Origin: Patescibacteria group bacterium
GTDB lineage: Bacteria > Patescibacteriota > Patescibacteriia > Magasanikbacterales > UBA922
Length of the DNA stretch: 64,000 bases
Assembly: GCA_041658785.1 (NCBI GenBank)
Contig: JBAZZL010000003.1
Location: 639 to 64,638 of the forward strand
Direction of reading: 5' to 3'
Below, piece after piece: positions 57,834 to 60,058 of the stretch (position 1 is its first letter; every line of letters starts with the position of its first letter). Under the pieces are notes generated by a model. It saw only the letters and a program-made list of their open reading frames with translations, had not been told where the DNA came from and did not search any database. The position numbers and the translations under genes are program-made.

Positions 57834-59681
57834 ATGAAAAATTTAGCCAAAAATATCCTGTTCATATTCTTGTTGTTATTTTTGATAGCCACTTTGTTTA
57901 GTTATGGAGAAATTGGCAAAGAGAAGCCTGATGAAGCAGGAATTAGCAAGTTGGTGGATCAGATTAATAAAGAGGAAGTGAAAAGCATTGATGTAAAAGG
58001 CGATATGCTGGAAGTAACATTGAAAGATGAGGCGGCAAAGATGCAGACAGTGAAGAAAGAGCCGGGGCAGTCGTTTTCTGAACTCATGGATAATTACGGA
58101 GTAGATTCGGAAAAATTGAGAGTGGTTGAAGTCGCGGTAAAAGAAGAAACAGGAACAAAGTTTTGGCTTAAGGTTTTGGCGCCGTATCTGCTTCCTTTGT
58201 TTTTGATTCTGGGACTGATATTTTTTATGTCCCGGCAAGTGCAGGGAATCAATAAGGGCGCGATGGGATTTGGCCAAAGCAAGGCCAGGCAGGCCAAAAC
58301 CGAAGACAAGGATAAAAAGACGTTTAAAGATGTGGCCGGAGCGCGAGAGGCAAAAGAGGAGTTGGCGGAGATTGTTGATTTTCTCAAAAATCCAAAACGA
58401 TTTACCGACATGGGCGCTAAAATTCCCAAAGGCGTGCTTTTGATGGGCGCGCCGGGCACTGGAAAGACGTTGGTAGCCAAGGCGGTCGCTGGAGAGGCGG
58501 GAGTCCCTTTCTTCCATATTAGCGGTTCTGAATTTGTGGAAATGTTTGTCGGGGTGGGCGCTTCTAGAGTGAGAGATTTATTCAACCAAGCGAAGAAAGC
58601 GGCGCCGGCGATTGTATTTATTGATGAAATTGACGCTGTCGGCCGAAAGCGGGGATCTGGTTTGGGCGGTTCTCATGATGAACGTGAACAGACGTTGAAC
58701 CAAATTTTGGTAGAGATGGATGGTTTTGATCCGCATCTTGGAGTGATTGTGATTGCGGCGACCAATCGTCCGGATGTTTTGGATGTAGCTTTACTGCGTC
58801 CCGGCCGTTTTGATCGCCAGGTAGTGATTGATCTTCCTGACATCAAAGAACGGGAAGAAATTCTTGAAGTGCATGCCGCTGGCAAGCCATTATCCAAAAA
58901 AAATTCATTGCGAAAACTGGCGGAACGCACGCCCGGATTTTCCGGAGCTGATCTGGAAAATCTTTTGAACGAAGCGGCCATACTTGCTGTCCGTCGCGGC
59001 AAAAAGCAGGTTGATGAAGAAGACGTTTTGGAAAGCATTGAAAAAGTTTTGCTTGGTCCGGCCAAGAAGTTTAGGGTGATGACGGAAAAAGAGCGGGAGA
59101 TGACCGCGTACCACGAGGCAGGGCACGCGATTGTCGGACATTTTTTGGAGAATTGCGATCCGGTTAGAAAAATTTCAATCATTGGGCGGGGGCGCGCCGG
59201 CGGATATACATTGGCTATGCCGGAGAAAGATGTCCGTTATCAAACTTTGGCGCAATTCAGAGATAATATGGCAATGATGCTGGGCGGATATGTTGCCGAG
59301 CTTTTGATTTATGGCGAAGATCAGCTGTCAACCGGACCTTCAAACGATTTGAAAAAAGCCACCCAGCAGGCCAAGTCAATGGTGATGCGTTATGGCATGA
59401 GTGAAAAACTCGGGCCGCGCACTTATAGCGAGAATGAGGAACTTATTTTTCTTGCTCAAGAGATTCACGAAAAGAAAAATTATAGCGAAAAAACCGCGGA
59501 GCTGATTGACGCGGAGATTGATAGATTTTTGGAAGAAGCAAAAATATGCGCGACTAGAGTGATGAAAGAGCATCGCAAAGAAATGGATGAGCTTGTCAAG
59601 GTTTTGTTGGAAAAAGAAACGGTGGAACAAGAAGAGTTTAGGGCTATTGTTGGTGATTGGAAACTGGAAACTGGAAACTAG
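57834..59681 (+). CDS. ftsH: ATP-dependent zinc metalloprotease FtsH
   Basis: TM helices, AAA+ Walker A and B, SRH, HEAGH zinc motif. The last ~10 codons read into the heptamer array. Confidence 0.9.
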
Positions 59682-60058
59682 AAACTGGAAATTGGAAACT
59701 GGAAACTGGAAATTGGAAACTGGAAATTGGAAACTGGAAATTGGAAACTGGAAATTGGAAATTGGAAACTGGAAATTGGAAATTGGAAACTGGAAATTGG
59801 AAACTGGAAACTGGAAATTGGAAATTGGAAACTAGAAACTGGAAACTGGAAATTGGAAACTGGAAAATGGAAATTGGAAACTGGAAATTGGAAATTGGAA
59901 ACTGGAAATTGGAAACTGGAAACTGGAAATTGGAAATTGGAAACTAGAAACTGGAAACTGGAAATTGGAAACTGGAAATTGGAAACTGGAAATTGGAAAC
60001 TGGAAATTGGAAACTGGAAATTGGAAATTGCGAAATTTGGATACCAACGCCCCAATTT
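59651..60058. repeat. ~400-bp tandem array of ~57 heptamer units TGGAAAC / TGGAAAT
   Basis: Read directly. It lies between the convergent ftsH and uvrA genes. The ORFs called across it are repeat translations (KLETGNW). Confidence 0.95.

Follow-up and report, generated by a model that had tools for sequence, protein, structure and literature searches.

A long heptamer array and its inverted partner between the convergent ftsH and uvrA genes of a Patescibacterium

In the 64,000-nt stretch of contig JBAZZL010000003.1 analyzed here (hereafter the window), the genes ftsH and uvrA, both identified from precomputed Pfam matches, converge on a 391-nt spacer (59682-60072) occupied by tandem heptamers of the TGGAAAY type. 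On the left, 53 units follow one another in register, starting within the 3' end of ftsH. Beyond a short unique spacer, an inverted array of about six units runs into the 3' end of uvrA, and the whole constitutes a long AT-rich inverted repeat of tandem heptamers whose arms number 53 and 6 units (Table 1). The inverted partner is absent from the original prediction, a description made from the letters of the DNA alone, which hence missed the hairpin architecture. To judge from FtsH, whose nearest species representatives are Patescibacteria (81% identity to a marine-biofilm metagenome-assembled genome, 70-74% to named Candidatus Magasanikbacteria), the host belongs to the Patescibacteria, close to the Magasanikbacteria.

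The main array is composed of 25 TGGAAAC, 24 TGGAAAT and 3 TAGAAAC units and a single TGGAAAA. With these variants coded C, T, a and x, in that order, it reads 5' to 3' CCCaTCCTCTCTCTTCTTCTCCTTCaCTCxTCTTCTCCTTCaCTCTCTCTCTT. Because C and T units mostly alternate, Tandem Repeats Finder (TRF) favors a 14-nt period in its own call on the array (59656-60037; periods 14/21/35, 91% matches, score up to 608). The two unit types had been described as mixed in no fixed order; their order is in fact structured, the longest exact repeat within the array measuring 111 bp at an offset of 112 bp, i.e., a block of ~16 units is present twice. An earlier count of about 57 units over 59651-60058 is right as to the existence of the array and too generous as to its extent: unit parsing and TRF place 53 units at 59658-60028, and the earlier interval also took in the 23-nt spacer (60029-60051) and the start of the inverted array. 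Most of the array is non-coding, 347 of its 371 bases lying 3' of the ftsH stop codon.

Three other classifications were considered for the array and rejected. Its 7-mers are contiguous with no spacers between them, which is incompatible with clustered regularly interspaced short palindromic repeats (CRISPR), and it is internal to a bacterial chromosome segment in every assembly, which speaks against a telomere-like repeat or contaminating eukaryotic satellite DNA. Open reading frames (ORFs) do run through the array on both strands, because most units carry no stop codon. Pfam searches with these array-spanning ORFs returned a sub-threshold, low-complexity Fn3-like sum score with no significant stretch, and a coding reading was rejected on this result. 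The ORFs are also inconsistent among the alleles described below, with one of 76 aa called in the 36-unit allele whereas the 16-unit allele has none, and they are artefacts of the largely stop-free units.

Both neighboring genes take their last codons and their stop codon from heptamer units. The 3' end of ftsH reads ...GAT TGG AAA CTG GAA ACT GGA AAC TAG, and its last 24 nt (59658-59681) correspond to array units 1-3 followed by the TAG of unit 4, the first TAGAAAC variant. Units 1-3 thus encode the FtsH tail WKLETGN, and the ORF closes on the TAG of unit 4, in agreement with the earlier statement that the array forms the 3' end of ftsH. On the opposite strand, the UvrA C-terminus (...KMKLENRN*) is encoded by the inverted array, and the uvrA stop codon at 60073-60075 (CTA on the plus strand) is the TAG of a TAGAAAT-type unit. 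A third case was noted at recA, whose product ends in ...EEEIGN* and whose stop codon at 52718 is supplied by an unexpanded TGGAAAT-TAGAAAT dimer at another convergent junction; the mini-hairpin predicted at this site is weak (-8.2 kcal/mol) and not significant. Three housekeeping genes of the window (ftsH, uvrA, and recA) hence draw their last codons and TAG from the TGGAAAY unit family.

Table 1 Features of the ftsH-uvrA locus, its alleles, and related arrays in the window.
Feature	Position	Strand	Evidence or remark
ftsH coding sequence, 615 aa	57834..59681	+	ORF/translation; precomputed Pfam AAA + Peptidase_M41
(TGGAAAY)53 array, expanded left arm of the inverted repeat	59658..60028	+	TRF, unit parse, 36- and 16-unit alleles elsewhere
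16-unit block x2 (111-bp exact repeat, offset 112)	59756..59978	+	Internal-repeat search, unit-string alignment
Minimal hairpin: last ~6-7 array units, spacer, and inverted array	59980..60101	.	Folding of each strand, whole-region fold
Central unique spacer TGCGAAATTTGGATACCAACGCC, 23 nt, hairpin tip	60029..60051	.	Sequence, minimum free energy structure
Short inverted array (AATTTCY)x6.1 (TRF: CCAATTT x6.1), right hairpin arm	60052..60094	-	TRF, ORF
uvrA coding sequence, 949 aa	60073..62922	-	ORF; precomputed Pfam UvrA_DNA-bind/UvrA_inter
recA end, unexpanded TGGAAAT-TAGAAAT dimer, weak mini-hairpin, convergent junction	52700..52727	-	Pattern match 52714-52727, 1 mismatch
Wzy_C (O-antigen-ligase family) gene	47131..48504	-	Pfam E = 1.5e-22
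Inverted pair (TAGAAAC-type)x4.1 / (CCAGTTT)x4.1, in frame in Wzy_C, encoding ...LVSSFLFLIS	47795..47858	-	TRF, translation
Wzy loci compared with the window gene	L209 3001-4314; L210 3001-4458; L211 3001-4362		
Second-largest system: (AAGTTGT)x12.9 at 35519-35609 and inverted (CTTACAA)x5.1 at 35977-36014	35519..36014	-	TRF
Array allele, this window			53 units
Array allele, ERZ27247322 (L001/L205)			36 units
Array allele, ERZ27249422 (L206)			16 units
Array allele, JGI 3300028032 (L002, L207)			Contigs end within the array; left contig ≥24 units, right contig ≥31 units
Array allele, SRR8449812 (L003)			Contig ends within the array

The inverted array is the reverse complement of TGGAAAT/TAGAAAT units, and the two hairpin arms (42 nt, 88% complementary) stand 22 nt apart. 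The central spacer carries a mini-palindrome of its own (TTGG-ATA-CCAA, 60037-60047) and is identical in every assembly that reaches this point. The minimal hairpin is predicted to be very stable on both strands, with -53.0 kcal/mol (z -10.7) for the ftsH-sense strand and -47.1 kcal/mol (z -8.2) for the uvrA-sense strand. It does not have the appearance of a Rho-independent terminator, being AT-rich, longer than 40 bp, and devoid of a T-run, and consensus scans of the ftsH-uvrA spacer for intrinsic terminators and promoters found no site. Within the window, only two tRNAs reach the Rfam gathering score and no family does so in the spacer; in permissive Rfam scans of 59400-60300 and 57150-57850, the spacer gave only far-sub-threshold matches to miRNA precursors, which reflect the long hairpin. 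A metagenome scan with the unique hairpin-tip sequence returned no match. The asymmetry of G·U pairs between the arms was considered as a clue to the functional strand and discarded as uninformative, since inspection shows that every C-type unit contributes one wobble and one mismatch on either strand.

Exact-protein look-ups of FtsH, UvrA, and neighboring genes recovered the locus from four other assemblies, with flanks 99.4-100% identical and arrays of different lengths (Table 1). The 36-unit allele differs from the window by the loss of one copy of the 16-unit block and of one further unit, the left-hand contig of JGI 3300028032 has two units fewer at another place in the array, and the 16-unit allele has private TAGAAAT variants. 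In every assembly reaching the beginning of the array, exactly three units precede the TAG unit (CCCa or CTCa), so that variation is confined to the non-coding part. An expansion or collapse of a short repeat during assembly would be a concern for any such array: three contigs from two short-read assemblies stop inside it (L002, L003, and L207), several other metagenomic TGGAAAY arrays lie at contig ends, and the 36- and 53-unit alleles differ mainly by one copy of a 112-bp internal duplication, a typical collapse, which could account for this block difference. Nevertheless, we consider an assembly artefact, in the array or in its length, very unlikely. All five independent assemblies contain the array, it can be assembled because all 127-mers of the window array are unique, and neither the one- and two-unit differences nor the private TAGAAAT variants of the 16-unit allele could be produced by collapse. 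A second array also varies, with 11 vs. 12 copies of CAACTTA beside an intervening sequence (IVS) protein gene in a strain 98% identical to that of the window. Copy number thus differs between near-identical strains at two arrays, evidence of an ongoing process. With 7-nt repetition beyond chance, copy-number variation between strains at the level of assemblies, and a non-coding site near gene boundaries, the ftsH-uvrA array has the properties of a genuine hypervariable heptanucleotide variable-number tandem repeat (VNTR), as far as can be judged from assembled sequences, on which the exact lengths are based.

The array itself is not shared by related genomes. As a rule, ftsH in the 19 relatives compared leads into an ordinary hairpin, GC-rich and with a T-run, and none has a TGGAAAY array at this position. 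Some of them (L004, L007, and L010) carry small tandem arrays after ftsH, made of units unrelated to TGGAAAY. Only L018 and L019 have uvrA convergent with ftsH, and in both an ordinary terminator lies between the genes. Since relatives have unrelated small arrays or none at the end of ftsH, the array sequence is not conserved.

Across the window, short-period arrays are far more frequent than expected. TRF detected 18 period-7 and 11 period-8 arrays with at least three copies, compared to 0.13 and 0.10 per dinucleotide shuffle, i.e., >100-fold above chance. These arrays are concentrated in intergenic regions (70% of array bases vs. 16% of the window), and a start or stop codon is no more than 10 nt away from 12 of the 35 (null expectation 3.5), which answers positively a question about gene ends raised in the original prediction. 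Four further sites listed there are borne out by TRF: 8731-8756 (GATTTCA x3.7), 8937-8966 and 9200-9265 (TTGGAAA x4.3 and CAATTAC x9.1, listed together as 8930-9260), 35519-35609 (AAGTTGT x12.9), and 54596-54623 (ACAAATA x4.0). A fifth, at 52100-52125, comes down to just two ATAGGAAAT copies 14 nt apart. Inverted partners are also common, with about a quarter of arrays in the window (8 of 34) having one within 150 nt as opposed to none in the orientation control, and the hairpins predicted from such pairs are very stable (z between -6 and -10).

A comparison with other loci places this excess in a broader context. Inverted partners accompany 29 of 149 arrays in 47 Patescibacteria loci (6 in the control) and none of 25 arrays in 33 loci from outside the candidate phyla radiation (CPR). 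The distribution of periods across loci peaks at 7, with 61 arrays as compared to 22 of period 6 and 19 of period 8, and the density of period-7 arrays is ~10-fold higher in Patescibacteria than in non-CPR loci (8.5 vs. 0.9 per 100 kb), the window itself reaching 28. Within Patescibacteria the trait is patchy: at least two period-7 arrays were found in 17 of the 47 loci and none in 23. Arrays also differ in composition according to their position, as a suggested test of strand bias revealed for the window and the 47 Patescibacteria loci combined. Within 30 nt of stop codons the sense strand is predominantly purine-rich (29 vs. 12, i.e., 29 of 41), whereas arrays near start codons lean towards pyrimidines (24 vs. 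14, i.e., 24 of 38; Fisher p = 0.003 for the difference between stops and starts). Overall, the earlier view that the ftsH-uvrA array is not an isolated microsatellite is upheld, both by the excess in the window and by the period-7 peak shared with related Patescibacteria loci. The attribution to a lineage-specific process is not: the trait is patchy within Patescibacteria, metagenome contigs of 0.30-0.71 GC, one of them from Burkholderiales, show the same period-7 peak (see below), and such an excess has already been published.

Several individual arrays of the window were noted for their architecture. In the second-largest system (Table 1), complementary heptamer arrays enclose the 119-aa 23S-rRNA-IVS-protein gene (35614-35973; PF05635, E = 5e-31), and a long-range stem of ~40 bp is predicted around the whole ORF in the minimum free energy structure. 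This is the architecture of an rRNA IVS, an RNase III substrate, but it sits between protein-coding genes. Short arrays or hairpins occur at further convergent junctions, e.g., at 33897-33926 and at the recA end. On the minus strand, TTACAAG-type arrays at 49985-50070 form an inverted pair whose predicted hairpin (-33 kcal/mol, z -6.1) takes in the start codon of a Polysacc_synt gene (48565-50019) and the codons next to it, and could sequester translation initiation of this gene. Finally, a 92-nt near-perfect palindrome at 39231-39322 (-42.4 kcal/mol, z -9.5) combines ACGAATTTA 9-mers with complementary unique flanks and has no U-tract. It separates two minus-strand genes of the same direction, and its make-up suggests that an array was duplicated in inverted orientation along with the adjoining sequence.

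To determine how widespread the unit itself is, we scanned metagenomes for at least five TGGAAAY units, which matched at least 120 contigs. The 80 contigs retrieved from this set span 0.30-0.71 GC and contain mostly pure arrays of 5-18 units. They also carry 96 other heptamer arrays made of unrelated units (21 per 100 kb), with many inverted pairs and one array of 47 copies, and peak at period 7 as well (96 vs. 10 of period 6 and 13 of period 8). One contig belongs to Burkholderiales by its Mfd protein. For L118, of high GC, a homology search with its longest ORF gave no match, probably because that ORF is spurious. The idea that TGGAAAY is a lineage-specific element was rejected on these grounds, and its presence in at least 120 unrelated metagenome contigs shows it to be no special element. 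A TTCAAGT array of 46.7 copies on an unrelated metagenome contig of low GC (0.33; L111, 3538 onward) demonstrates that arrays approaching the length of that between ftsH and uvrA exist elsewhere.

Units are correspondingly diverse within the Patescibacteria set, with 62 kinds among 84 period-7 arrays. The commonest family, TGGAAAT (AAATTGG), has only five members across three genomes, and recurrences of the same family number 26 (9.6 expected). Members of the TGGAAAY family are found at four places in the window: 8938, 47795-47858, 52714, and 59658-60094. In L128 (7783-8165), which comes from the same sampling project and is a locus without relation to ftsH, TGGTGAT-(TGGAAAY)18-TGGTGAT is accompanied by an inverted (AATTTCY)8 array, and the arrays flank a nested palindrome of ~190 nt (GTGAATTACGAAAC ... 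GTTTCGTAATTCA, with GTCATTCCCGCC...GCGGGAATGAC as its inner part). Two intergenic spacers of the window contain a perfect 16-nt palindrome, GTCATTCCGGAATGAC (20113-20128 and 27238-27253, regular-expression search), which joins its halves without a spacer, unlike GTCATTCC-NN-GGAATGAC; half-sites GGAATGAC occur at 36171, 42883, and 57768. This palindrome may be the unfilled form of nested palindromes of the L128 type.

Arrays are not restricted to spacers and gene termini. The Wzy_C gene of the window reads in frame through four array sites with units of 7-8 nt, three of them inverted pairs, including the pair at 47795-47858, for which a stable hairpin is predicted (-29.2 kcal/mol, z -6.9). In an alignment of 18 homologues, these sites coincide with hypervariable, indel-rich loops. 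Orthologues from four species, with 57-60% amino-acid identity, contain near-perfect heptamer arrays of ~4-5 copies at shared loop positions, three species at all four loops and the fourth (P0008) at a single loop, and the units are mostly different between species. For a conserved transmembrane segment at one of these sites, LVS(S/C)FLFL, one species uses TAGTTTC-type units and another perfect TTGTTTC units. Conserved codons AAC-TGG-AAA (NWK) stand at a Wzy loop in many homologues. This persistence of position with turnover of sequence is the least expected result of our analysis. Since a change by one unit shifts the reading frame, phase variation of this surface-polysaccharide gene would be possible.

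Two further observations concern the surroundings and allelic variation of this gene. In the Wzy allele of ERZ27249422, a 33-nt GC-rich palindromic insert (...TTCCCGCAGCGAGCGGGATCCCG...; L213 ~4215-4250) lies in frame within the loop-1 array and, compared to the window (~48285-48318), yields a protein of 468 aa instead of 457 aa. The insert resembles the nested palindrome of L128 and looks like a small insertion element targeting arrays. The adjoining ORF (46101-46799, minus strand, 232 aa) has a weak partial match to the IS200-like Y1 transposase family (PF01797, E = 6.8e-6, residues 162-216), marked as faint in the precomputed annotation. It is kept in strain variants and absent beside Wzy in other species.

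We propose, with a probability of about 70%, that the ftsH-uvrA element is a non-coding VNTR, i.e., a heptamer hairpin at a convergent gene junction, one arm of which was expanded by slippage or unequal exchange and tolerated beyond both stop codons. The ancestral state would have been a modest AT-rich inverted repeat of a few TGGAAAY units and their complement between the two genes, with both arms overlapping the last codons of ftsH and uvrA, and G-to-A variant units (TAGAAAY) supplying both stops. The left arm would then have grown by slipped-strand mispairing during replication, one or two units being gained or lost at a time. Duplication or loss of the 16-unit block would be due to unequal exchange or to slippage over a longer range. 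Together, these changes would have produced the 16-, 36-, and 53-unit alleles of strains whose identity is otherwise at least 99.4%. Block-sized changes and indels of one or two units are the expected signatures of these two processes. Expansion would be tolerated because it took place beyond both stops in a promoter-free convergent spacer, and for the same reason most of the array is probably neutral. The terminal hairpin, as the sole structured element of the spacer, could serve both genes as a shared 3'-end or RNA-stabilizing structure. The locus would then represent the extreme tail of a genome-wide tendency, patchily common to other bacteria, to form 7-8-nt arrays, sometimes with inverted copies, wherever these are tolerated, whether in intergenic spacers, at gene termini, or in variable loops of membrane proteins. 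Several points weigh against this proposal. Generic slippage accounts neither for the sharp preference for period 7 over 6 or 8 nor for arms of 53 and 6 units, and allele lengths rest on assemblies, in which collapse of the 112-bp duplication could have given rise to the 36-unit allele. The spacer lacks a canonical terminator whereas relatives have one, which may mean that the hairpin is needed for function. Selection or a directed process, instead of pure neutrality, is hinted at by the shared positions of Wzy arrays across species and by the strand bias between stops and starts.

Alternatively, the structure might be primarily a functional bidirectional 3'-end element, i.e., a terminator, an RNase III site, or an mRNA-stabilizing hairpin, that stands in for the canonical terminator of relatives, with the array as a length-tunable 3' untranslated region, a reading that is partly compatible with a VNTR and that we regard as possible, if clearly the less probable. 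It would fit the very stable fold on both strands in an otherwise unstructured spacer with no canonical terminator detected, the GC-rich hairpin and T-run found just after ftsH in relatives, including the two with a convergent uvrA, and the short arrays or hairpins at other convergent junctions (33897-33926 and 52700-52727); indeed, the spacer, unlike the same position in relatives, has no terminator, and the hairpin may act in addition as a 3'-end element for both genes. Nevertheless, the stem is AT-rich, exceeds 40 bp, lacks a proper U-tract, and failed the intrinsic-terminator pattern, and only the last ~6 units pair, leaving the other ~47 without a hairpin role. Array hairpins of equal stability also occur in the coding sequence of Wzy and across a start codon (49985-50070). 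Termination at such places would do harm, and the presence of hairpins there points to an origin at the DNA level rather than a dedicated RNA function. It is the persistence of Wzy arrays with turnover of their sequence that underlies another, doubtful reading, in which heptamer arrays and inverted copies would arise not from generic slippage but from a dedicated period-7-specific mechanism confined to certain genomes, and would be kept at fixed positions, some of them within genes, with rapid sequence turnover. The ftsH-uvrA array would then be what such a system yields when it runs away, its normal output in Patescibacteria being switches prone to frameshifts or structured RNA elements.

Other functions or origins appear less plausible still. 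That the array is a binding platform or sponge, whose copy number titrates a nucleic-acid-binding protein (CsrA-like and recognizing GGA, or of Csp/S1 type), is unlikely: each unit does contain GGA, arrays do cluster at starts and stops with opposite purine and pyrimidine biases, and Csp/S1-type proteins have been proposed for TAACTGA heptamers (PMC4679880), but no single binding specificity fits 62 unit kinds among 84 arrays, the sequence is not conserved at this locus in relatives, and a three-fold range of copy number in near-identical strains is hard to square with a tuned titrator. We find it decidedly unlikely that the array and its partner are a mobile or dispersed palindromic element, akin to miniature inverted-repeat transposable elements or to doublets of repetitive extragenic palindromic sequences (REP doublets forming hairpins, REPINs), that inserts at gene ends and permissive loops. 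The recurrence of the TGGAAAY family in the window, at L128 with its nested palindrome, and more generally across genomes (26 same-family pairs vs. 9.6, with AAATTGG the commonest) could be so explained, as could the faint Y1-transposase-like ORF and the 33-nt palindromic insert that separates two Wzy alleles. Yet neither target-site duplications nor conserved termini were seen, the units of most arrays are unique and only about a quarter of arrays have inverted partners, the commonest of the 62 unit families has no more than five members where a REP/REPIN system would be a dispersed family, and the AAC-TGG-AAA codons at the Wzy loop suggest seeding from local sequence rather than insertion. 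Finally, a phase-variable ftsH is very improbable. The unit length is not divisible by 3, simulated loss or gain of one unit before the TAG extends FtsH from 615 aa to 664 or 706 aa, i.e., by a tail of 49 or 91 residues of the form (NWKLE[T/I]G)n, and heptanucleotide switching is known elsewhere, at neuO. Against this, exactly three units precede the TAG unit in all assemblies reaching it, all repeat-number variation falls after the ftsH stop, outside what a contingency locus would require, and ftsH encodes a housekeeping protease and is not a typical contingency gene.

The window holds other repeats and unusual regions in addition to heptamer arrays. The stretch at 57241-57388, with no convincing ORF, is 86% identical over 148 nt to L128 1858-1997 and has strong sigma-70-like sites nearby (57599-57572 on the minus and 57639-57667 on the plus strand). 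It remained without a match in a permissive Rfam scan, and may correspond to a small RNA missed by annotation. A dispersed 107-nt intergenic repeat (31482-31588 and 44014-44120, 95% identical) is embedded in larger GC-rich palindromic spacers (...CGCGGTAACCCGCACCTCATCCCC...GGGGTGAGGTGCGGGTTACCGCG...), and related sequence was recognized by eye in the spacers 3596-4116 and 25256-25924. Positions 1-8500, with a GC content of 0.46-0.60 vs. ~0.40-0.45 elsewhere, contain paralogous repeated segments (3282-3586, 6889-7268, and 7595-7709) and coding-type tandem repeats of 27 and 39 nt (6989-7120 and 7717-7808), and may be foreign or mobile DNA.

Long heptanucleotide simple sequence repeats (SSRs) of prokaryotes include the short tandemly repeated repetitive heptamers of cyanobacteria. 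The ftsH-uvrA array belongs to the prokaryotic heptanucleotide VNTRs, and is notable among them for its length, hairpin architecture, host phylum, and the stop codons lent to two genes. According to a 2007 survey, as summarized in a later article, heptameric SSRs are over-represented in many bacterial genomes (Mrazek 2007, via PMC4692102), and they have been little studied since (PMC4692102). Xanthomonas genomes contain ~185 GGGAATC arrays of 2-26 units (mode 4), mostly intergenic and some in inverted pairs, and Nostoc has GGGGA(T/C)T arrays of up to 26 units (PMC4692102). Like the array described here, these are 7-nt tandem repeats found mostly in intergenic regions near starts and stops; they usually have ~4 copies with occasional long arrays, vary between related genomes, and include some stem-loop-forming inverted pairs (PMC4692102). 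They differ in that a single G-rich unit family with G-quadruplex potential dominates each of these large genomes of free-living bacteria, whereas units are A/T-rich and diverse in our small-genome Patescibacterium, and the 53-unit array is ~2x the published maxima for both genera. TAACTGA heptamers, known from Beggiatoaceae, Cyanobacteria, and Bacteroidetes, usually have 2-6 copies and up to 43 (MacGregor 2015, PMC4679880). They are likewise mostly intergenic, abut start codons, sometimes overlap upstream stops or lie at protein termini, and are patchy in phylogeny, and they consist of a single conserved unit, with stops in all three frames in one orientation, that has been read as a translational-regulator binding site (PMC4679880). 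Here, by contrast, there are many units, frequent inverted partners, and in-frame copies in membrane-protein loops.

Contingency-locus heptamers vary in copy number by slipped-strand mispairing. Examples of such heptanucleotide repeats are Escherichia coli K1 neuO and the Haemophilus influenzae HMW1A promoter. The ftsH-uvrA array shares with VNTRs at these loci a frame-shifting 7-nt unit and a copy number hypervariable between close strains, but its variable part lies after both stops and away from promoters, with no evident on/off switch. REP sequences, bacterial interspersed mosaic elements, REPINs, and Rickettsia palindromic elements (RPEs) are conserved families spread by a transposase or as selfish insertions, and RPEs also occur in frame within coding sequences. 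Intergenic hairpin repeats at gene 3' ends are common to these families and our window, as are, for RPEs, hairpins within coding sequences such as those of Wzy, but each hairpin arm is here an internal tandem array with a largely locus-specific unit. A bidirectional Rho-independent terminator places one hairpin, foldable on both transcripts, between two convergent stops, and the stem between ftsH and uvrA departs from this model in being AT-rich, longer than 40 bp, mismatched, and without flanking A/T tracts. Tandem repeats of Borgs, finally, are pervasive, rapidly evolving, genome-specific, and perfect, both intergenic and genic (PMC9879509). They often begin at ORF ends and are A-rich, and their mechanism is unknown, with slippage discussed (PMC9879509). 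Their units are longer and of variable length, with all intragenic ones multiples of 3 (PMC9879509), whereas the arrays described here are sharply of 7 (or 8) nt even within an ORF. Among the papers listed in a literature search, none combined a heptamer-repeat term with Patescibacteria or Parcubacteria.

The heptanucleotide excess in bacterial genomes has been noted since 2007 and remains unexplained, and the ftsH-uvrA locus adds to it a natural allelic series of 16, 36, and 53 units in near-identical strains of an uncultivated, ultra-small Patescibacterium. It also extends the trait to inverted pairs forming hairpins, to gene termini with stop codons supplied by repeat variants, and to in-frame arrays in membrane-protein loops. 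At a practical level, such arrays affect both the quality and the annotation of CPR genomes: they break short-read assemblies, as the three contigs ending here illustrate, and yield spurious ORFs. If the Wzy arrays were frameshift switches, they would represent a first candidate cell-surface phase-variation system of these episymbiotic bacteria.

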